This document shows, piece after piece, positions 3,035-59,665 of a stretch of DNA of 64,000 nt (positions within the stretch are counted from its first letter, which is position 1; each line of letters opens with the position of its first letter). The notes under the pieces are model-generated. The model did no database searches. It was not told the DNA's origin and saw only the letters and a list, made by a program, of their open reading frames with translations. A program made the translations under genes and the position numbers. The DNA is from a virus, in IMG/VR virus record IMGVR_UViG_3300018432_000001, positions 78,478 through 142,477 of that record; one strand, written 5' to 3'.

Positions 3035-5260
3035 GTGCCTATCGTGTTGCAGCCTGTCGACCAGCTCGCGCACAACGAGCTGGCGCAGCGGCTCGCCTGC
3101 TGGGCCAAAGCCGAAGACGGCTTCACCGACAATGCCCTGATCTACCAGTCCTGCTGTGTCTCCCCCACCGGGCAGACGCTGGGCCGGTGGGTCGTTGACG
3201 AAGCGCTGTGCGCCGAGTACGGGCCGTTCGACTTCACCGCCAACGAAGGCGACGTTATTGTCTGCCCGACGCCGGGTTCGGCCGAGTACACCAACTACTA
3301 CATCTACGACGACGACGTCCACGCTATCGACCCGAACACCTGCATCGAGCAGCTGCTCGCGGCGCCGACAGGCCTGAACTCGCCCACGCAGGGACCCACC
3401 ACCGTGGACCTGGCGTGGGACGCCGTCCCTGACGCTCAGCGGTACGTCGTCCGCTGGTCTTTGGCTGGTCAGGACGACTGGACGGAGCTGGCGCCCACGT
3501 TCCTGCTGACCGCCGAGGTCACGGGCCTGACCGACGAAACGAGCTACGACTTCCAGGTGCAGGCGATCGCCGTGGGCTTCGTCGACTCGCCGTGGTCGGC
3601 CACGCTCACGCAGGCCACCACCTCGCTGGGGACGCTCGCAGCGCCTACGGGGCTCGCGACCCCATCGGCCACCGGTACCACCATCGACGTCACCTGGAAC
3701 GCCGTCGACAACGCCACCGGGTACACCGTGGAATGGTCGCCCACCGGCGCTGGAACGTGGACTCCGGCGACCACGGCCACGAACTCGTACACGATCACCG
3801 GTCTGACCTTGGACACGTCCTACGACATCCGCGTCAAGGCGACCGCACCGGGCTGGACCGACTCGCCGTATTCGGCCCAGATCATCGGCTCTACCGAGGC
3901 GCAGCTCGCCACTCCGGCGGGGCTCGCGTCGCCCTCGCAGACCGGCCTGACCGTGAACCTCACGTGGTCGGCGGTCACCGACGCCAACGAGTACGTCGTG
4001 CGCTGGTCTCCGGCCGGTGCGGGCACCTGGACTGAACTGGCGCCAGTAGGCATCACTAGCGCGACGGTGTCCGGTTTGACCGCCTCTACCAGTTACGACT
4101 TCCAGGTCAAGGCCCAGGCCGAGGACTTCGTCGACTCCGCGTGGAGCACCACGCTGACCCAGTCCACGGCGGCTGTCCTGGCGACGCCGGTACTGACGAG
4201 CCCATCGCAGACGGACACCACGGTCGCTTTGACCTGGGGTGCAGTGCCGAATGCGACGTCGTACACCGTGCAGTGGTCGCTGGCGCCGTCCGGTTCCTGG
4301 AACGCCATGCCGGACGTGTCGGGTACCGGGCAGACCGTCACGGGCCTGACCGCTGCCACGTCCTACCGGTTCCGGGTGCTGGCGCACGCTGCCGGTTGGA
4401 CCGACTCCGCGTGGTCGGCCGAGCTGACTCAGGCGACCGATGCCGCCCTGGCAGCGCCGACCGGGGTGAACAGCCCATCGCAGACCGCCTCGACGATTGA
4501 CGTCGCATGGACTGCCGTGGCGGGCGCGGACGGGTACACCGTCGAATGGTCCCCGGCGGGTGCGGGCACGTGGACGCCTGCGACGAACGCGGACACCACA
4601 TACACGATCATCGGGCTCGCGGCCGACACCGCCTACGACATCCGCATCAAGGCCACCGCGACCGGGTTTGCCGACTCGGCGTACTCGACGGTGCTCACGC
4701 AGTCGACGCTGGAAGTGCAGCTCGCTGCACCGACCGGGTTCGCGAGCCCCTCGCAGACCGACACGAGCATCAACACGTCCTGGGACGCCGTTGACGACGC
4801 CGAGTCCTACGTCGTGGAGTGGTCCCCGGCGGGTGCAGGCACGTGGACCCCGGTCCCCGCTGCCACGACTACCCAGGAGATCACGGGTCTCTCAGCCGCC
4901 ACCAACTACGACCTTCGGGTCAAGGCGATCGCAGACGACCACATCGACTCGACCTACGCAACGCTCACGCAGGAAACGCATGGGCCGCTGCTCGCGCCGA
5001 CCGGTCTCGCCAGTCCCTCCCAGACGTCGACCACGGTCGACCTCACCTGGAACGCGGCCATCAACGCCGATTTCTACGTCGTGCGCTGGTCGCCTGCGGG
5101 GGCCGGGACCTGGACTGAGGAACCGCAGGTGTCGGGGACCTCGGACACCGTCTCGGGGTTGACGGCCTCGACTTCATATGACTTCCAAGTCAAAACCATT
5201 GCGGACGGTTTCGCCGACTCTGGCTGGTCCGGCTCGCTTACCCAGTCAACTACCGCCTAG
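3035..5260 (+). CDS. Protein with seven FN3 repeats and a Cys-containing N-terminal domain
   Basis: Seven ~90-aa FN3 repeats; N-terminal ~105 aa shared with 5274..6161. Confidence 0.85.
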   Translation: MPIVLQPVDQLAHNELAQRLACWAKAEDGFTDNALIYQSCCVSPTGQTLGRWVVDEALCAEYGPFDFTANEGDVIVCPTPGSAEYTNYYIYDDDVHAIDPNTCIEQLLAAPTGLNSPTQGPTTVDLAWDAVPDAQRYVVRWSLAGQDDWTELAPTFLLTAEVTGLTDETSYDFQVQAIAVGFVDSPWSATLTQATTSLGTLAAPTGLATPSATGTTIDVTWNAVDNATGYTVEWSPTGAGTWTPATTATNSYTITGLTLDTSYDIRVKATAPGWTDSPYSAQIIGSTEAQLATPAGLASPSQTGLTVNLTWSAVTDANEYVVRWSPAGAGTWTELAPVGITSATVSGLTASTSYDFQVKAQAEDFVDSAWSTTLTQSTAAVLATPVLTSPSQTDTTVALTWGAVPNATSYTVQWSLAPSGSWNAMPDVSGTGQTVTGLTAATSYRFRVLAHAAGWTDSAWSAELTQATDAALAAPTGVNSPSQTASTIDVAWTAVAGADGYTVEWSPAGAGTWTPATNADTTYTIIGLAADTAYDIRIKATATGFADSAYSTVLTQSTLEVQLAAPTGFASPSQTDTSINTSWDAVDDAESYVVEWSPAGAGTWTPVPAATTTQEITGLSAATNYDLRVKAIADDHIDSTYATLTQETHGPLLAPTGLASPSQTSTTVDLTWNAAINADFYVVRWSPAGAGTWTEEPQVSGTSDTVSGLTASTSYDFQVKTIADGFADSGWSGSLTQSTTA

Positions 5261-5273
5261 TTAGGAGATAGCC

Positions 5274-6161
5274 ATGCCTATCGTGCTCCAGCCGATCGAT
5301 CAGATCGCTAAAAAGGAGTTGGCTCAGCAGCTGGCCTGCTGGGCGCGGGCCGCCAACGGCCTGACCGACGTCGCCGTCCAGTACGGTACCTGCTGCGTCT
5401 CGCCGACCGGCGAGACGTTGGGGCGTTGGACGATCCCCAACGACCTCTGCACCACGTACGGTGAGCTTCCGTTCACCGGAAATAACGGGGAGACGATCGT
5501 CTGCCCGCCCGTCGGGTCGGCCGAGTACGTCTCGTACTACATCTACGACGAAGACGTCGACCCGATCGACGTGGACACCTGCACGCCGCTGGTGGCGCTC
5601 GATGCGCCGACTGCGCTCGCGGCCGGGACCCCGACCGACACCACCATCCCGCTGACCTGGGTCGCCTCGGCGAACGCCAACGGATACACGGTGTCGTACT
5701 CCTCGGACTCGGGCACGACCTGGCTGGAGGTACAGGCCACCGGCAGCCCGTTCACGCTGACGGGGCTGACGCCGGAGACGACGTACACCATCCGCATCCG
5801 CGCGACCGACTCGACGAATACGTTCGCGAAGTCGCCGTGGACGAGCACGGTCACCGCCACCACGGAGTCTTCGCTGCCTGAGCTGGACGTCCCAGAGAAC
5901 CTGGCGACCGGTACTCCAGCGGCGACCGAGATGCCGCTGACCTGGGATGCGGTCACGAACGCCGTGTCGTACCACGTCCAGTACAAGACGACGGCATCGT
6001 CGACGTGGCTGGACTTCGCGACCGAGCCGGTCACGCCGTCGACCACGGTCACGGGCCTGGTGACCGCAACCAGCTACGACTTCCGGGTGCGCGCCAACGC
6101 CGACGACATCTCGTTCTCGGACTCGGACTACAGCGCGCCGGTCACCGAGACCACCGCGTAA
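5274..6161 (+). CDS. Protein with two FN3 repeats, paralog of 3035..5260
   Basis: MPIVLQPIDQ..LACW..CCVSPTG N-terminus; two FN3 repeats; AGGAG RBS. Confidence 0.85.
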   Translation: MPIVLQPIDQIAKKELAQQLACWARAANGLTDVAVQYGTCCVSPTGETLGRWTIPNDLCTTYGELPFTGNNGETIVCPPVGSAEYVSYYIYDEDVDPIDVDTCTPLVALDAPTALAAGTPTDTTIPLTWVASANANGYTVSYSSDSGTTWLEVQATGSPFTLTGLTPETTYTIRIRATDSTNTFAKSPWTSTVTATTESSLPELDVPENLATGTPAATEMPLTWDAVTNAVSYHVQYKTTASSTWLDFATEPVTPSTTVTGLVTATSYDFRVRANADDISFSDSDYSAPVTETTA

Positions 6162-6167
6162 GCGACA

Positions 6168-6212
6168 TGGAGGTGCCCGGCTCTCCTCGAAAGAGAGAGC
6201 CGGGCACCTCCA
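6168..6212 (+). terminator. Long hairpin, probable terminator
   Basis: TGGAGGTGCCCGGCTCTC / GAGAGCCGGGCACCTCCA 18-bp stem just after a stop codon. Confidence 0.7.
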
Positions 6213-6244
6213 GTTCCAACTTATCGTCCCTTTTGGAGGGGTAT

Positions 6245-6997
6245 ATGCCGAGTATCAAGTGGTACCCGGACCGTACGGTACCGCGCAAGGGCAAGGCCCG
6301 CGTCATCGATGTGCCGCAGGCGTACACGCTGTCCTTCGGGGATGGCAACACGATCGCGAAGGACGCCGACGACGTCTACCCGTACACCTATGCGGCGGCA
6401 GGCCCGTACGCGTTGAACGTGACGCTGGTCGGCGAGACCGAACCGGCGGCGTCGCTGCTGCTGAACGTGCTGGACGCAACGGTCCCGAACGTGACTATCT
6501 CGGCTCCGGCCAACACGCAGAAGATCCGGGTGGCGTTCAACGACCCCGAGATGCCCGTCGTGGGCCGCTACACGGTGGACTGGACGTCGACGGAGAGCGA
6601 AGATGTGCTCGCCGAGCCGGACAAGTACGTGGAGCGGCTCTTCGCGCCGGGCACGTATCCGATCCGGGTCACCGACCACTGGTCGGGACTGTCGGTGGTG
6701 CAAGACGTGGTGGTGGCGGCGGTGGCTGACGATCCGGGTTTTAGCCTCGCCGAGGACACGTCCGATGTCTCGCGGATGACAGCAGAGCTCGAAGTGCTCG
6801 CGGTTCCCTCGGCAGAACCCGAAGAGACTCTCACCGTCGACTGGGGCGATGGCCAAACCGAGACGCTCGCCGCCATCGTGGGCACAACGGCCTCACATGC
6901 TTACGCCTATGACGATGAGTACATGGTGGAGCTCGCGTACACCGCTGAGCCCGCGAAGAACACCACGCAGTTCGTGTGGCTGCCGTTCACGGATTAG
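6245..6997 (+). CDS. PKD-domain virion protein (about three PKD units)
   Basis: Start MPSIKWYP after GGAGGGG; FGDG..YTY..AGPY and VDWGDG..HAY motifs. Confidence 0.75.
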   Translation: MPSIKWYPDRTVPRKGKARVIDVPQAYTLSFGDGNTIAKDADDVYPYTYAAAGPYALNVTLVGETEPAASLLLNVLDATVPNVTISAPANTQKIRVAFNDPEMPVVGRYTVDWTSTESEDVLAEPDKYVERLFAPGTYPIRVTDHWSGLSVVQDVVVAAVADDPGFSLAEDTSDVSRMTAELEVLAVPSAEPEETLTVDWGDGQTETLAAIVGTTASHAYAYDDEYMVELAYTAEPAKNTTQFVWLPFTD

Positions 6998-7011
6998 TCC
7001 CGGAAGCAAGG

Positions 7012-7046
7012 AGCGGCCCTGACGTTGCGCACGTCAGGGCCGCTTT
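7012..7046. terminator. Hairpin terminator between the convergent PKD gene and tRNA-Met
   Basis: AGCGGCCCTGACGT / ACGTCAGGGCCGCT 14-bp stem. Confidence 0.7.
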
Positions 7047-7047
7047 G

Positions 7048-7121
7048 TCGCGGGGAGCGGATTTGAACCGCCGACCTTCAGGTTATGAGCCTGTTGAGCT
7101 ACCGAACTGCTCCACCCCGCT
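7048..7121 (-). tRNA. tRNA-Met(CAT), initiator-like
   Basis: AGCGGGG-TG-GAGC..GCTC, loop CTCATAA, T loop TTCAAAT; 1:72 mismatch and A11-U24; CCA not encoded. Confidence 0.9.
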
Positions 7122-7315
7122 GCGCGTCTCTGAGTGTAGCTGGTGTGCGGTGACGTCCTTTTCGAGTTGGTCCATGAGGGCGACCGACGAGGTCGTGCCC
7201 ACGTACAGGCACGCCATCCGAGAATTCGGCAAAGAGTATACACAACACCCTCATGTCCGTTTTGTCGTCTATAGTATGAATGACGTGGGTTTTTATTGCT
7301 AAGGAGGTCAGGCTG

Positions 7316-8884
7316 ATGGCGATCGCCCAGTACTCCGACCTGTTCTGGTATCCCTCAGGCACGCTGGCCACCGGCATCCAGGTACGCATCTTCGAACTCA
7401 ACGACAACGTGTTCGCCCCGCTCTTCTCCGACCCCGCCGGAACCATTCCCCTTGCCAACCCGATGACCACCAGCGCCACCGGCACCATCTCGTTCTACGC
7501 CGAGCAGGGCGAGTACTGGATGCACGCCGACTCCGAGAGTTTCCGGATCGGCGTCGGCCTGTCCCCGGTGACCCCGGAGACGATCGCCGCCATCGAAGCG
7601 GACGTGGCTGCGCTGCAAACCGACATGACAGCGGTCGAAGGCGACGTCACGGGCCTGCAAACCGCCGTAGCTACTGCGCAGGGCGACATCACGGCACTTC
7701 AGGGTGATGTAACGGCAGCGCAAGGGGACATTACTGCCTTGGAAGGGAACGTCGGAACCCTCCAGACCGACATGACCACCGCGCAGGGCGACATCACCGC
7801 GCTGCAGACCGGTTTGGGCACCGCGCAGGGCGACATCACCGCGCTGGAAGGCGACATGGCTACCGCGCAGGGCGACATCACCGCGCTGGAAGGCGACATG
7901 GCTACCGCGCAGGGAGACATCACCGCGCTGGAAGCGGCCATCGAGGTCACGGAAAAGGCGGCAGCATCCACACTGTCGACAGGCGTCTCTGCCGGTGGTG
8001 AGTTGAACGTCAACGGTGTGAGTTCTTCGGCGATTGATATCGCTCCGCTGGTCGGGTACATCACGTCGTTCGACATCGATCCGTTCAATCCTGCCATCAC
8101 CCGCATCGAATACCCCGGCGGGACTGTGGAGATGGACGCGGGCGCGCTCTCGCGGACCGCAACGGCGTGGTTGATGGACGTCAACCAGGTGATTACGCAG
8201 CAGGCGACGCCGCCCACGAATTCGCAGCGTCGCACCCACATCTTCTTGGGTATCACCGCGCAAGTCGGCGGCGTCATCATCGTCGACCAGACGTTGCAGA
8301 CCATTCTGCAACAACCCGCCAACCAACTGTCCGACCTGCTGAACTCGCTCGGCGCGTTCAACATCTCGGGGAACATCATCTCTGCCAACGGCGCGAACCT
8401 CATGATCAACCAAACGGCTGGAACGATGTTCGCCCAGTCGTTCAACCACTTCATGGGCCCCGTGCAGACCAACGACCCGCATGTGAACACGACGATGGCG
8501 CAGACCCCGGCGAACTTCCGGTACGCCACCCGCGACCCGAACACGCCGTTCGGGCTGCTTCGCAACACCATCGACGTCGCGAACTACGACAACGCAGGCG
8601 TCATCACGCCGATCGGCGGCGGCGCGAACTCCGCGACGATTCACCGCGTGTACCTGTTCGCGAACAACACCGCGAACGAGCAGATCGCCATCCAGTACGG
8701 GCAGAGCGTCTATGCGTCGCTGTCCGCAGCCGTCAACGCCATCGGTTCGGGCACGTTCGTGCAGAACCCGCTCATGAACGCCGCTGCCCTGCTGGGGCAC
8801 ATCTGCGTCATCCGGACCGCAACCAGCCTCGCCGACCCCGCGCAAGCCATCTTCGAAACCGCCGGAAAGTTCGACACCCCGTAA
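7316..8884 (+). CDS. Fibre-like virion protein with a coiled-coil shaft
   Basis: AAGGAGG RBS; 14-aa repeats QGDITALEGDMATA; globular N- and C-terminal regions. Confidence 0.7.
   Translation: MAIAQYSDLFWYPSGTLATGIQVRIFELNDNVFAPLFSDPAGTIPLANPMTTSATGTISFYAEQGEYWMHADSESFRIGVGLSPVTPETIAAIEADVAALQTDMTAVEGDVTGLQTAVATAQGDITALQGDVTAAQGDITALEGNVGTLQTDMTTAQGDITALQTGLGTAQGDITALEGDMATAQGDITALEGDMATAQGDITALEAAIEVTEKAAASTLSTGVSAGGELNVNGVSSSAIDIAPLVGYITSFDIDPFNPAITRIEYPGGTVEMDAGALSRTATAWLMDVNQVITQQATPPTNSQRRTHIFLGITAQVGGVIIVDQTLQTILQQPANQLSDLLNSLGAFNISGNIISANGANLMINQTAGTMFAQSFNHFMGPVQTNDPHVNTTMAQTPANFRYATRDPNTPFGLLRNTIDVANYDNAGVITPIGGGANSATIHRVYLFANNTANEQIAIQYGQSVYASLSAAVNAIGSGTFVQNPLMNAAALLGHICVIRTATSLADPAQAIFETAGKFDTP
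7600..7935 (+). repeat. 42-bp tandem coding repeats (two heptads each)
   Basis: ACCGCGCAGGG(C/A)GACATCACCGCGCTG recurs at ~7778, 7820, 7862 and 7904, with degenerate copies upstream. Confidence 0.85.
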
Positions 8885-46398: not shown

Positions 46399-46401
46399 AC
46401 G

Positions 46402-46475
46402 TCGGGCTGACAGGATTCGAACCTGCGACCCCCCGCTCCCAAAGCGGGTGCGCTACCAAACTGCGCCACAGCCCG
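46402..46475 (-). tRNA. tRNA-Pro(TGG)
   Basis: CGGGCTG acceptor, CCCGC-TTTGGGA-GCGGG, GTTCGAATC. Confidence 0.92.
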
Positions 46476-46516
46476 GAAGGCGCCAGCGTGCGGGCGCTGG
46501 CGCCGGTCCCTGCGAG

Positions 46517-46587
46517 AGCCCTCGCGGGGAATCGAACTCCGGTCGCTCGCTTACGAGGCGAGTGCTCTGCCACTGAGCTACAAGGGC
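46517..46587 (-). tRNA. tRNA-Thr(CGT)
   Basis: GCCCTTG acceptor, CTCGC-CTCGTAA-GCGAG; one T-stem mismatch. Confidence 0.85.
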
Positions 46588-46588
46588 G

Positions 46589-46661
46589 AGCGGCAACCGG
46601 GGATCGAACCCGAGACCTTCTGGTTGGAAGCCAGACGCTCTACCAGCTGAGCTACTGCCGC
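46589..46661 (-). tRNA. tRNA-Gly(TCC)
   Basis: GCGGCAG acceptor, TCTGG-CTTCCAA-CCAGA, U73. Confidence 0.92.
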
Positions 46662-46662
46662 G

Positions 46663-46735
46663 TGCCCAAGGCAGGATTCGAACCTGCAACCTTCCGGTCC
46701 GGAACCGGATGCTCTGTCCGTTGAGCTACCTGGGC
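46663..46735 (-). tRNA. tRNA-Arg(CCG)
   Basis: GCCCAGG acceptor, TCCGG-TTCCGGA-CCGGA. Confidence 0.92.
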
Positions 46736-46740
46736 ATTGT

Positions 46741-46818
46741 GTACAGCAGTTCCGGCTGCTGCACTGCTTCCCTTTCACGCCCTACCGCCGGAGCAGCTTT
46801 GCGGCAGTACCGCTGTGC
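46741..46818 (-). ncRNA. tRNA-sized structured RNA inside the array (candidate)
   Basis: Terminal stem GCACAGCGGT/ACTGCTGTAC with internal hairpins. Confidence 0.35.
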
Positions 46819-46838
46819 GAGCCCAAGGAGCCGGGCCG

Positions 46839-46912
46839 TACCCAGGGTGGGACTTGAACCCACACTGTGCGGTGTTTGAAGCCGCTGCCTCTGCCGATTG
46901 GGCTACCCGGGC
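46839..46912 (-). tRNA. tRNA-Leu(CAA), short variable loop
   Basis: GCCCGGG-TAGCCCAATCGGCAGAGGC; GCGGC-TTCAAAC-ACCGC with a C31-A39 mismatch. Confidence 0.85.
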
Positions 46913-46958
46913 GTGTTCCTCTACTGTCACCGTCACCCTACGCGATGCGGCGGTGGTG

Positions 46959-47030
46959 TGCTCAGGGAGGGATTTGAACCCCCAACCCTCGGTATGTGAC
47001 ACCGATGCGCTGCCATTGCGCCACCCGAGC
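46959..47030 (-). tRNA. tRNA-Val(CAC)
   Basis: GCTCGGG acceptor, TCGGT-GTCACAT-ACCGA. Confidence 0.88.
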
Positions 47031-55883: not shown

Positions 55884-56291
55884 TCAGTCAGGGGCGTACG
55901 TGTGGGCGCAGTCGTGGGCACAGCACCGCGCGGGCCGAGGGGCGGAAGGGGGCACCACTTCGGCGTCGTCCAGCTCCCGCCACTGGGGTGTTTCCGTCAG
56001 GTAGATCACCTGGTCACCGCAGGCCTGGCAGCGGACGGCATAGTGGGTGCGAACCGGATGCGCCGGGTAGTGGTGGGGGACGGACTTCAGCCGCTTGCCG
56101 TCGGCGATCCGAGAGGGGCTCACTACGCGCCGACCGGTCCGCGCCGGAGCGACCGTGGTGCCGAAGCACTGCAGGAGCGGACCGGCGAAGTCGCAAACGC
56201 CGCAGGACAGGTCCAGGTGGGTGGCGCGGATCTGGCGGCTCCAGGGGCCCCAGTCGGGGGATTGCCGCCAGGCCCCTTCGATAACGGTCAT
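55884..56291 (-). CDS. Zn-ribbon hypothetical protein
   Basis: CGVC...CQACG. Confidence 0.55.
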   Translation of the reverse strand: MTVIEGAWRQSPDWGPWSRQIRATHLDLSCGVCDFAGPLLQCFGTTVAPARTGRRVVSPSRIADGKRLKSVPHHYPAHPVRTHYAVRCQACGDQVIYLTETPQWRELDDAEVVPPSAPRPARCCAHDCAHTYAPD

Positions 56292-56311
56292 CCCCACATT
56301 GTCGCGCAGGC

Positions 56312-56674
56312 CTACGACACCGGGGGTTCCGTGTCCCGGTCGTAAACGTCACGGTAGAGCGTGGCCTTCTCGACCAATTCCTCGTGGTGGGCATCGAGGA
56401 TCGCCTTGGCCAGTACTTCGGCTTCAGGGTTGAACGCCCAGACCATGATGTTCTTGCGGGTGGCGTCGTACCCGGTGTGGACGGCCAGCTTGTGCCGCTC
56501 CAAGCGCGCGATCCCGTACCGCACGCCGGACTCGCTGATGCCGTTGAGGTCGGAGACCAGGTCACGGGCACTGCGGAACGGCAGGCCGCCTTGGTGGTAG
56601 TCGTGACGTAGCACCCATAGCACGGCCACGGCCGCCCCGGTGACCTTCGGATTTTTGGAGTCGCGCGCACGCAT
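56312..56674 (-). CDS. Winged-HTH protein (putative)
   Basis: SARDLVSDLNGISESGVRYGIARLERHKL. Confidence 0.55.
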   Translation of the reverse strand: MRARDSKNPKVTGAAVAVLWVLRHDYHQGGLPFRSARDLVSDLNGISESGVRYGIARLERHKLAVHTGYDATRKNIMVWAFNPEAEVLAKAILDAHHEELVEKATLYRDVYDRDTEPPVS

Positions 56675-56704
56675 CGTTGCTCCCTAATGGTCGGTGATGG
56701 GGGA

Positions 56705-56739
56705 ACGGCTCCGGACGCCGTGGCGGCGTCCGGAGCCGT
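56705..56739 (-). terminator. Hairpin terminating the conservon-like operon
   Basis: ACGGCTCCGGACGCC / GGCGTCCGGAGCCGT 15-bp stem. Confidence 0.7.
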
Positions 56740-56764
56740 GGTCGAATCGGTGGGGTGGGTAGGG

Positions 56765-57340
56765 TCAGCCGGTGAGACCGGCGCGTTCGGCGACGCGGGC
56801 CTCGACCTTGCGCGCCCAGCCCTTGATCCATTCGAGGTGGGGCTGCTTCCATTCGTGCTCGACGTCGCTGATGACCCACACGGTCAGGACGACGTCGCCG
56901 TTAGGGGCGCAGACCTCCTCGCCGAGGTAGGAGCGGACGCCGAACTCGATGGCGACGATGTTCGTGGAGTAGCGGGGGTGGTCGTTCGTGTTGATCGCCA
57001 GCGGGCGCCGCCGCTCGGTCACCACGATGCCGCAGTAGCCCATCTTGCCGGTCATGGTCCGGTCGGCTTCGGTGATCGGGCCGAGGTCGGCTCGCTTGTC
57101 CAGGCCGATGAAGTACTGCTCGCAGCCCGGCATCACAAGGTTCACGCCGACCTCCATGGCATGGCCCTCACCCATCATGGCGTCGAACTCGGCGAGCATC
57201 TGCTCGGCGATCGCGTCGTACTCGGCGTCGGGTTCGGGTCGCAACCCGAGCTGGGTCTGCAGCGCGGCGCGTTCAGCGCCGTGCGGGTCCTCGGGGGCCA
57301 TCGAACGGAACTCGCCCTTGGATCGTTTCGGGTCGGTCAT
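56765..57340 (-). CDS. GAF-domain protein (conservon accessory, CvnF-like)
   Basis: QYFIGL, RTM....GYC..VV..RR.PL, HPRYSTN..V...GVRSYLG. Confidence 0.8.
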   Translation of the reverse strand: MTDPKRSKGEFRSMAPEDPHGAERAALQTQLGLRPEPDAEYDAIAEQMLAEFDAMMGEGHAMEVGVNLVMPGCEQYFIGLDKRADLGPITEADRTMTGKMGYCGIVVTERRRPLAINTNDHPRYSTNIVAIEFGVRSYLGEEVCAPNGDVVLTVWVISDVEHEWKQPHLEWIKGWARKVEARVAERAGLTG

Positions 57341-57377
57341 GATGCGCTCCTAAACAGGGTGGGTGGGGTGTGTGGGG

Positions 57378-57752
57378 TCAGAGGCGGCGATGGAGCCCCG
57401 CGAGCAGGGCCTTCAGCATCTGCACGTCGGCGGGATCGGCCAGCTGCGGCGAACGCGCTTGTACCGCACCGGCTTTGATGAGATCGGACACCAGTACTTT
57501 AACAACTGATCGGGGCAGGTGCAGGTGAGCTGACACCTCCGCGACCGACATCGGCTCGCTGCGGCACAGCAGCAGCACCTGGCTGTGCTCCCCGCCCAGC
57601 TCGCCGACGCCGTCGGCGAACCGTGCCCCCTCAATCGCGGCGACCAGTGTGGTGATGTCGAGCTTCACGCTCGCCCTGGTGCGCCCCCCGGTAGCGGTGT
57701 AAGGGCGCCCCAGGGGGCTGTCGCGGACCGGCTCGTCATGGTCGGCGCTCAT
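57378..57752 (-). CDS. DUF742 protein (CvnC-like)
   Basis: RPYTATGGRTR, SVAEVSAHLHLP..VVKVLVSDL, LLAGLHRL. Confidence 0.9.
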   Translation of the reverse strand: MSADHDEPVRDSPLGRPYTATGGRTRASVKLDITTLVAAIEGARFADGVGELGGEHSQVLLLCRSEPMSVAEVSAHLHLPRSVVKVLVSDLIKAGAVQARSPQLADPADVQMLKALLAGLHRRL

Positions 57753-57759
57753 GGCGTCC

Positions 57760-58209
57760 TCACCGCGCGGCGGGACGCTCAGGGGTGGGAAGGAAGGACC
57801 GGACGCTGGCGACGAACTTCTGCGTCTCGAACCCCACCAGCGCGGCATCGGCCTCGCGGGTGGTGACCACGGCCAGGACGGTGCCCAGACCGGCCGAGGA
57901 GATGAACAGCAGCATGTCGTCCAGCTCGACCAGCACTTGGCGGACGGTGGTGGACGCGGGCACCACGGGCGCTTCGCTGTCCGTAGCTGCCACGATGGCG
58001 GCGCTGCGCGCCAGGGAGAACAGGCCCGAGGCGGTGGCGGCGAGCTGGGCAGCCTGCTCGGTGCCCAGGCCGACAGCGCACCGGGTGATGCCGTCCGAGG
58101 ACAGCAGCATCGCGCCGTGGGAGTGGCGGATGTCGGTAAGCATCTGCTGCAGCCGCACGGTCAGGTCGGTGCCGTCGATGAGGGGGACGGTGAAGGAACG
58201 GTCGGACAC
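57760..58209 (-). CDS. Roadblock/LC7 (MglB/CvnB-like) protein
   Basis: AMLLSSDGI, QLAATASGLFSLA, VRQVLVE, LAVV...ADAALVGFE. Confidence 0.9.
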   Translation of the reverse strand: MSDRSFTVPLIDGTDLTVRLQQMLTDIRHSHGAMLLSSDGITRCAVGLGTEQAAQLAATASGLFSLARSAAIVAATDSEAPVVPASTTVRQVLVELDDMLLFISSAGLGTVLAVVTTREADAALVGFETQKFVASVRSFLPTPERPAAR

Positions 58210-58254
58210 GGGAGTCTCCTTGATAGTGATCGGGATGGATGAGGTGGTTGAAAA

Positions 58255-58608
58255 TCAGGGGGCCGGGGGCAGTTCGTTGCGGTTGAAGCGGGGGACGTGT
58301 GCTTTCTCCAAATCGATCTTGCCCGCCCGCGTACCCCGGACGTATTCGATCAGCTGCCGTTCGATGATTTTGCACTGCTCGGTTTCGAACCGCTTGGCGA
58401 ACACGCGCACCGAAGCCGCAATGCCCTCACGCCAGCGGGCGACAACTTCCAGGGGCTGCCCGGGTTCATCGAGGATGGGGACCACAATGCGCCGGGCCTC
58501 GTTCTTGGCCTCGACCGTGCCGGTGAACCCCACCTGCATCTGCTCGTCGCCGATGCCGATGAGCAGGTCGATCTCCTCGACCGCTCGCCATTCGTCTTCA
58601 GGCTTCAT
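58255..58608 (-). CDS. Hypothetical protein
   Basis: ORF within the operon. Confidence 0.5.
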   Translation of the reverse strand: MKPEDEWRAVEEIDLLIGIGDEQMQVGFTGTVEAKNEARRIVVPILDEPGQPLEVVARWREGIAASVRVFAKRFETEQCKIIERQLIEYVRGTRAGKIDLEKAHVPRFNRNELPPAP

Positions 58609-58612
58609 GGGA

Positions 58613-59164
58613 TCAGTTCCCTTCCGGATCGGGCATCAGCAGCAGCGCATCGCGCAGGCGCCGCGCCGCTTCGGCCGGGGAGTGGCCGTCCCATTCGGGC
58701 GGTAGCGGCACCTCAGGAACGGCGAACAGGTTCCAGTCGGCGTTGGCGTAGTGGAAGCTGACCTGCCCGGTCGGCAGCTCGGCGACGACAATGAAGTACT
58801 TGCCGTCAAAGCAGCGCTCGCCGTCGTGATGACGGCGGGACTTGACGACCTTCCAGCCCTTTGCCAGCCACGCGGGCGTCGCGTGCGCGTGCAGCAGCAG
58901 CCGGGATTCGTAGAGCTCTTTGTGGGTGTGGAACCCGTCCGAAGCTTCCCCGGAGGCCAGTTCAGCACGAAGCCGGTGCACCTCGGCGCGGTAGCCGAGC
59001 AGCACCGCCAGCCCGTTCTCGGTGAGTTTCTGCGGAGGTTCGGCGAGATAGTCGGTGCCGCACTCCAGGCAGATCATGTGCGTGGTCTCGCGTGTCCGTC
59101 CCGAGCAGGTCAGACAGGCACTCCCGGCCCCCAGTTGCTGGACTTGGGCACTCTTTTCAGCCAT
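58613..59164 (-). CDS. Conserved phage protein with a WDGH-type domain
   Basis: FHT..ELY..R, KSRRHHDG, FIV.AELPTGQVSFHY, WDGH. Confidence 0.65.
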   Translation of the reverse strand: MAEKSAQVQQLGAGSACLTCSGRTRETTHMICLECGTDYLAEPPQKLTENGLAVLLGYRAEVHRLRAELASGEASDGFHTHKELYESRLLLHAHATPAWLAKGWKVVKSRRHHDGERCFDGKYFIVVAELPTGQVSFHYANADWNLFAVPEVPLPPEWDGHSPAEAARRLRDALLLMPDPEGN

Positions 59165-59429
59165 GGCTCTCGCTCCTGTCCTGGTTGAGCCCGAAAGCGC
59201 GGATGCGGCTGTGCGGGCAAGCCGGTTCGGTCTCGAACCAGCCGTGCTCCTGGCAGTATCCATGGTGGTCGAACGTGCACAAGCTGTCCTCGTAGAGGTC
59301 GAGCACCAACGTGCGGAGCCGGTCGATCTCGGCGAGGAGACGCGGGACGCTGTCGTACTCATCGACGCCCCGATAGTCCTCACGGATTGCTTCCAGGTCG
59401 GCGTCGGTGAGCGATTTGGCGGACGTCAT
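59157..59429 (-). CDS. Hypothetical protein
   Basis: VPRLLAEIDRLR; C.FDHHGYCQEH...CPH. Confidence 0.55.
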   Translation of the reverse strand: MTSAKSLTDADLEAIREDYRGVDEYDSVPRLLAEIDRLRTLVLDLYEDSLCTFDHHGYCQEHGWFETEPACPHSRIRAFGLNQDRSESHG

Positions 59430-59665
59430 CGGGCAGTGCCTTTCTCGGTGGAGCGGGAGACAGCGGCCATGCCGCACGTGCAGGTGCCGCTGCCTTCGAT
59501 CCGGCAGCGCTCGAAGTGCCACCAGTGGGTGGACTCCGGTCGCGCCGTCGACAACGGCCCCAGTACCACGGTGGAACCGTCCAGCGCGCACGAGCTGATC
59601 GCTTCGGCCAGGATCATTGGACCGAAATGCATCTGCAGGGCCCACATGGGGGGTATCGCTTTCAT
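59426..59665 (-). CDS. Hypothetical protein
   Basis: ATGA coupling; H..C...CTCG. Confidence 0.5.
   Translation of the reverse strand: MKAIPPMWALQMHFGPMILAEAISSCALDGSTVVLGPLSTARPESTHWWHFERCRIEGSGTCTCGMAAVSRSTEKGTAR

Follow-up and report, generated by a model that had tools for sequence, protein, structure and literature searches.

What could a phage gain from part of a signalling operon whose two enzymes it does not carry? The question is posed by three adjacent genes in a 64,000-nt stretch of viral DNA (hereafter the window; positions 78,478 to 142,477 of IMG/VR record IMGVR_UViG_3300018432_000001). The window forms the right-hand part of the 142,477-bp genome of a tailed soil actinophage, a record with direct terminal repeats and a completeness rating of 100%. 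The genes resemble those of conservons, the operons of the actinobacterial G-protein system (AGPS), which number 5-14 in a large actinomycete genome, control antibiotic production and development, and are poorly understood. Conservons encode the kinase CvnA, the roadblock protein CvnB, the DUF742 protein CvnC and the small GTPase CvnD, and a subset of them has a GAF accessory gene, cvnF (PMC13343842). The analysis presented here suggests, with a probability of roughly 0.55, that the phage locus derives from a cvnF-type conservon, has neither the kinase nor the GTPase, and would engage the CvnA/CvnD switch of its host, an interpretation that leans on analogy with characterized conservons.

Identity of the three genes

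A first, sequence-only reading of the window had described three adjacent intact genes ending at a strong hairpin, and these coordinates hold. The genes are closely packed on the minus strand at 56765-58209, in the order B-C-F, and are arranged with the hairpin as follows:

57760-58209, minus strand: cvnB homologue (roadblock/LC7, MglB type), 149 aa, with a GTG start behind AAGGAG
57378-57752, minus strand: cvnC homologue (DUF742; C-terminal part resembling a winged helix), 124 aa from the ATG at 57752
56765-57340, minus strand: cvnF homologue as judged from sequence and predicted fold (stand-alone GAF accessory protein), 191 aa, with TAGGAG upstream
56705-56739, minus strand: perfect hairpin with a 16-bp stem and a 3-nt loop, beginning 25 nt past the cvnF stop

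The mechanically called cvnC reading frame extends over 57378-57848; its real start is most likely the ATG at 57752, since sister phages have a 124-aa product from the equivalent ATG. With this start, 7 nt separate the cvnB stop from cvnC, and the gap between cvnC and the GAF gene is 37 nt, which leaves no room for a cvnD between them, just as the sequence-only reading had proposed when it noted that conservon gene order was kept with cvnD missing. It had also held that the gene upstream is not cvnA, and that 117-aa gene (58255-58608) indeed has no family match, nor is it recognised by a cvnA profile. The hairpin has a folding energy of -36.4 kcal/mol (z -7.3), a value not reached by any of 200 shuffled sequences. 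A scan of positions 56000-59500 for consensus promoters and terminators found nothing; the hairpin escapes such a scan because it lacks a T tract, and it is probably a terminator or an RNA-stabilizing structure without a U tract.

The first two genes are readily assigned. The cvnB product matches Pfam Robl_LC7 with an E value of 3e-10 (40.1 bits versus a cut-off of 23), and the cvnC product matches Pfam DUF742 with an E value of 1.8e-30 (105.6 bits versus a cut-off of 27). CvnB is 149 aa long in the window phage versus 140 aa in its four sister phages. Searches of the three genes against PHROGs and NCBIfam were uninformative, with one weak match of CvnF to a PHROG of unknown function.

The third gene required more evidence. 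The domains proposed from sequence alone were confirmed over the Pfam cut-off for the roadblock and DUF742 proteins but not for the GAF protein, whose match to Pfam GAF (E value 0.015, 16.3 bits) lies under the cut-off of 22.4; its fold and the synteny of its relatives nonetheless identify it as CvnF. An AlphaFold2 model of the protein (predicted local distance difference test score, pLDDT, 80; predicted template modelling score, pTM, 0.79) is essentially one stand-alone GAF domain, and a Foldseek search with this model returned 283 matches with E<0.001, of which the best was 4zmu (template modelling score, TM, 0.71) and the top ones were nearly all GAF-domain proteins. An exhaustive profile search, based on an alignment of the phage protein and its relatives, retrieved 10,846 proteins. 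All of the ten best cellular matches pass the Pfam GAF model, and the named ones among them are annotated 'GAF domain-containing protein' and come from Amycolatopsis, Pseudonocardia, Streptomyces and Spirillospora. The best cellular match is from Amycolatopsis cynarae, where its gene immediately follows a series made up of a 584-aa cvnA-like gene and Robl_LC7, DUF742 and ATP_bind_1 genes, in that order. Moreover, in species-representative genomes a conservon adjoins the GAF gene in 13 of 13 loci found by tblastn with E<=1e-9 (11 in the order A-B-C-D-F and 2, both from Thermomonosporaceae, in the order F-A-B-C-D) and in 0 of 10 weaker tblastn loci.

Residue conservation points the same way. A CvnF signature was defined as the 72 alignment columns in which 15 cellular CvnF proteins reach at least 90% identity. 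Ten phage CvnF proteins keep 44-50% of these columns (46% in the window protein), while nine of ten GAF controls unlinked to a conservon keep 14-21% and the tenth, L026, keeps 46%. Residues that are invariant in phage CvnF and rare in the controls include P16, D18, D42, F77, M96, C103, N127, Y138 and T153, and the N-terminal P-x-D motif of CvnF is retained in the phage proteins. Because GAF fold, GAF homologues, conservon synteny and signature residues agree, the third gene is, on comparative and modelling grounds, a true cvnF homologue, that is, a homologue of the GAF accessory protein of conservons. It should be noted that CvnF has been defined by synteny, as a protein encoded four genes from a cvnA without a sensory domain (PMC13343842), and that the phage genome holds no cvnA from which such a distance could be counted.

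Absence of cvnA and cvnD from the phage genome

The sequence-only reading had further supposed that the phage carries neither the kinase nor the GTPase of the system, and a search of the complete genome bears this out. No match to the Pfam families HATPase_c, ATP_bind_1, Ras or MMR_HSR1 was found in the 142-kb genome, and HATPase_c and ATP_bind_1 were not found in three further phage records that are 97-99% complete. Generic models may, however, be blind to this type of CvnA kinase, as the cvnA of the Amycolatopsis locus has no Pfam match on record. For this reason, family-specific profiles of A, B, C, D and F were built from 14 cvnF-type conservons and run, with filters off, against all 1,304 phage open reading frames of at least 40 aa. 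The CvnB, CvnC and CvnF profiles each gave a single match (130, 124 and 80 bits, respectively), whereas the best scores over the whole genome were only 8.9 bits (E value 0.046) for the CvnA profile and 3.5 bits for the CvnD profile. As far as profile searches can tell, cvnA, cvnD and other small GTPases are absent from the complete phage genome.

The lack of any GTPase or kinase partner on the phage is also what would be expected if the locus had nothing to do with host CvnA and CvnD. The three genes might instead form a stand-alone sensor and regulator of the phage, in which the GAF protein would sense a cytosolic small molecule, the winged helix-turn-helix of the DUF742 protein would be the output, acting on DNA or on a phage protein, and the roadblock protein would be an optional adaptor. 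Residues 83-133 of the cvnC product give weak Pfam matches to MarR_2, HTH_IclR, Sigma70_r4 and TrmB, in keeping with such an output. However, the sole DUF742 activity demonstrated biochemically is guanine nucleotide exchange factor (GEF) activity on, and binding to, the cognate GTPase (PMC11343762), the sole demonstrated activity of CvnF is on CvnA (PMC13343842), and DNA binding by DUF742 proteins is not reported in the literature that was searched. The phage proteins also keep family-specific residues that go beyond what a generic fold would demand. A self-contained regulator of this kind thus appears unlikely, although it deserves to be kept in view.

Distribution, origin and selection

Loci of this type are not confined to a single phage. 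The complete B-C-F trio is also found in four sister phages or phage fragments of ~138-143 kb (L003, L004, L037 and L038) and in a more distant group (L007, L008 and L009) whose third protein is 51-55% identical. A third group, consisting of a 106-kb contig (L011), a 73-kb IMG/VR record (L039) and a 107-kb ENA contig, carries only C and F, with a CvnF homologue of 187-204 aa, at the following positions in two of its members:

L011:4824-5955: DUF742 gene, then CvnF homologue
L039:937-2097: DUF742 gene, then CvnF homologue

A search of L011 and L039 for a divergent roadblock gene yielded none that is recognisable (best score 7.9 bits), and the gene upstream of cvnC in the ENA contig has no Pfam match on record. 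The module is therefore present in at least three divergent phage lineages, and its invariant core in phages, as judged from gene content, is C plus F. That one phage lineage has no recognisable CvnB is a further point in favour of the stand-alone regulator discussed above, in which the roadblock protein is dispensable.

The sequence-only reading had proposed a search of phage and plasmid databases for B, C and GAF genes without A and D. Such arrangements do exist, in the lineages just described (one of them with C and F only), but none was recovered from deposited phages: nucleotide and protein searches with the locus against 50,697 deposited phage genomes gave no match, and none of these genomes has a DUF742 gene. 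Among plasmids, six records have a CvnF match, and the two neighbourhoods examined (Kitasatospora purpeofusca pKP058 and Streptomyces fungicidicus p1) are full A-B-C-D-F operons. Descriptions of phage-borne conservon genes were not found in the literature searched.

Phylogenies indicate where the phage genes came from. In a careful maximum-likelihood tree of CvnC, the 14 phage or phage-like sequences all group in a single clade (support 100/99), which sits within a clade (99/94) that contains the CvnC of all cvnF-type conservons and excludes all 25 CvnC taken from the other conservons in three actinomycete genomes. In a CvnB tree, which was built by a quick method and has some long branches, the phage sequences again form one clade (96) within cvnF-type CvnB, beside a pair from Thermomonosporaceae. 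Both phage CvnB and phage CvnC are on long branches relative to the cellular proteins. The simplest account of these trees would be a single capture of a cvnF-type operon from an actinomycete, with loss of cvnD and subsequent spread among phage lineages; cvnA appears either never to have been taken or to have been lost.

Cellular conservons show several arrangements of their own. In Actinomadura vinacea and a Spirillospora strain, the Thermomonosporaceae pair whose CvnB sequences are the closest cellular ones to the phage clade, cvnF lies upstream and the order is F-A-B-C-D (L013:6983-10676 and L014:6665-10587). Some chromosomal conservons of other clades, in Streptomyces and Actinomadura genomes (L048, L049, L050 and L069), have cvnA, usually cvnB, and cvnC, with no cvnD within ~1.5 kb downstream. 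Operons without cvnD thus occur in cells too, but those keep cvnA. In Streptomyces sp. Da 82-17, two conservons lie ~2 kb apart (L017:52-1401 and 3149-7528), one of another clade and one of the cvnF type. Downstream of cvnF, one cellular subgroup has genes for threonine dehydrogenase, glycine C-acetyltransferase and a LysR regulator (L005:274-3362, a metagenome contig, and L073:4992-8008, a Streptomyces fungicidicus plasmid); this may be a conserved output neighbourhood.

Within phages the genes show signs of constraint. The comparison covered eight loci; each has intact B, C and F genes, and protein identities across them range from 44 to 97% (77-99% for the L007/L008 pair). Among five close phages of ~140 kb, ratios of nonsynonymous to synonymous substitution rates (dN/dS), calculated by the method of Nei and Gojobori (NG86), are 0.06-0.63, with values of 0.38 for B, 0.37 for C and 0.26 for F between the window and L003. 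These ratios fall inside the range of 23 neighbouring phage genes (0.13-0.73). More distant comparisons of CvnB (44-51% identity) gave ratios near 1 and were rejected as unreliable, because dN is near 0.5 and NG86 performs poorly under strong bias in the G+C content of third codon positions (GC3); the conclusions on selection rest on close pairs only. Decay of the genes, which the sequence-only reading had named as an outcome that would count against it, is not seen, and the comparison indicates that the trio is kept by selection.

This result bears on the idea that the trio is passenger DNA without a role for the phage. The location of the genes, in a region of small accessory genes that differs in gene content among sister phages, is compatible with that idea. 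However, passenger DNA would not be expected to stay conserved and intact across lineages in which identity has fallen to 44-55%, nor to show dN/dS values that are below 1 and match those of the genes around it. A related suggestion, made from the sequence alone, was that the genes inform the choice between lysis and lysogeny. This role is weakened by the outcome of a search of the complete 142-kb genome, in which neither a tyrosine nor a serine integrase was found; the phage is, given this absence, probably strictly lytic or non-integrating, and without an integrase lysogeny itself is doubtful. Taken as one alternative, a passenger or an input sensor for lysogeny is very improbable.

The phage markers of the genome are a major tail protein, a tape-measure protein, a RecD-like helicase and a WDGH-domain gene. 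Among sequencing runs, the only one that contains most of the window is a soil metagenome, which may be its source, and no RNA run is listed as containing it. The tail protein is distantly akin to those of Arthrobacter, Microbacterium, Mycobacterium and Gordonia phages, and the tail and helicase proteins have only distant relatives (31-38% identity) in deposited phages. The G+C content of the window is 62-70%. Six minus-strand tRNA genes (Pro, Thr, Gly, Arg, Leu and Val) are clustered at 46401-47030 of the window, and a separate tRNA-Met is at 7047-7121. Upstream of the trio, the WDGH-domain gene (58613-59383) is far more variable among sister phages than its neighbours, with 66% identity over 79% of its length, and a 78-aa gene at L003:4530-4766 is without a counterpart in the window.

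Possible action on the CvnA/CvnD switch of the host

The phage retains exactly the three known modulators of a conservon and neither of the signal-carrying enzymes, CvnA and CvnD. Since this modulators-only pattern is hard to explain otherwise, we infer that the enzymes are supplied by the host. Strong ribosome-binding sites, gaps of 7 and 37 nt and the closing hairpin suggest one small operon, from which B, C and F would be made during infection. The activities to be expected of them can be taken from characterized homologues. In the Mfp conservon, MfpD (a CvnB homologue) is reported to act as GTPase-activating protein (GAP) on the GTPase MfpB (PMC9769811, as cited in PMC13343842), and MfpC (a CvnC homologue) binds MfpB and acts as a GEF (PMC11343762). 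In the Cvn8 conservon, CvnF8 co-purifies with CvnA8, raises the Vmax of its ATPase 10-fold and its kcat 7.3-fold, and enhances its autophosphorylation (PMC13343842). By analogy with MfpD and MfpC, phage CvnB would act as a GAP and phage CvnC as a GEF on host CvnD, while phage CvnF, by analogy with CvnF8, would bind host CvnA and stimulate its ATPase activity and autophosphorylation. Docking of the trio on both host proteins could in this way override the state of the host G-protein switch. The apparent lack of an integrase fits a role in a lytic take-over.

Comparison with known systems shows how far these analogies reach. The closest are the cvnF-type conservons, for example Cvn8 of Streptomyces coelicolor (SCO6939-6943; PMC13343842, PMC8510531), in which homologous B, C and F genes have the same order and orientation as on the phage. 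The phage locus differs from them in lacking cvnA and cvnD, in being carried by a lytic-looking phage rather than a chromosome, in encoding proteins that are 30-55% identical to the cellular ones, and in having a CvnF that scores under the Pfam GAF cut-off. The mycobacterial Mfp conservon (PMC9769811, PMC11343762) has the roadblock and DUF742 families in common with the phage but falls in another conservon clade, lacks a GAF accessory protein, and includes the GTPase MfpB, the kinase MfpE and the pentapeptide-repeat effector MfpA. A further likeness is found in the polarity switch MglA/MglB of Myxococcus, where a roadblock-fold protein is the GAP of a Ras-like GTPase; that system is not actinobacterial, has no DUF742 protein, GAF protein or kinase, and controls protein localisation. 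The conservons of plasmids pKP058 and p1 are, like the phage locus, mobile copies of the cvnF type, but they are complete, and only the phage copies are without A and D.

Several observations weigh against an action on the host switch. No cultured relative of the phage is present among deposited phages. Phage CvnF is just 30-35% identical to cellular CvnF and, because the residues at the CvnA-CvnF interface co-evolve (PMC13343842), its binding to a host CvnA is not assured. GAP and GEF drive CvnD in opposite directions, so that the net effect of supplying both is unpredictable, and B seems dispensable in one phage lineage, where only C and F are kept. A dN/dS of ~0.3 indicates only moderate constraint. 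Finally, in the one cellular genome checked, LanC and the cvnF-type conservon are on different contigs. The notion that donor operons are generally linked to lanthipeptide genes was dropped, as LanC is not beside the cvnF-type conservon in this one checkable genome, and the lanthipeptide link considered below is hence an example from S. coelicolor and not a rule.

In that organism, the anti-phage 'lanthiphage_Sco' is repressed by Cvn8, and phage resistance was tested with a cvnF8 deletion strain (bioRxiv 10.1101/2024.06.26.600839). Deletion of single cvn8 genes derepresses the lanthipeptide cluster, most strongly when cvnA8 or cvnF8 is deleted. As the loss of any cvn8 gene has this effect on an anti-phage cluster, extra B, C and F should hold the system in its repressing state. 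For this reason an agonist effect of the phage proteins is the preferred, tentative reading of the direction.

An effect of the opposite sign on the same target would result if the phage proteins were decoys whose non-productive binding to host CvnA and CvnD shuts the switch down. The gene identities and the absence of A and D fit decoys as well as they fit productive modulators, the phage proteins are on long branches relative to the cellular ones, and the loss of about half of the CvnF signature columns could reflect a loss of activity with binding retained. The residues that confer GAP, GEF and kinase-stimulating activity are not defined, however, so a loss of activity cannot be judged, and three separate decoys for one pathway would be unparsimonious. 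Moreover, where the switch represses a defence, as Cvn8 does, shutting it down would turn that defence on. Decoys are accordingly regarded as improbable.

If, in keeping with the preferred reading, the trio acts as a set of agonists on host CvnA and CvnD, a speculative and still doubtful extension is that it serves counter-defence through host regulation. The phage would then lock the switch such that anti-phage specialised metabolites, be they lanthiphage-type lanthipeptides or the products of other AGPS-controlled gene clusters, stay silent.

The phage copy is in effect a natural dissection of a conservon into its three modulators. If these engage the host as proposed, B, C and F would suffice to reset the CvnA/CvnD switch of a host in trans, and the trio would offer small, portable tools to switch silent gene clusters on or off. 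If the counter-defence version were true, it would be a first in two respects: a virus hijacking a Ras-like G-protein system of bacteria, and anti-defence directed against a chemical defence through its regulator. The locus thereby provides a concrete and testable case in which a phage may manipulate the chemical defence of its host via the regulator of that defence and not via the defence itself.

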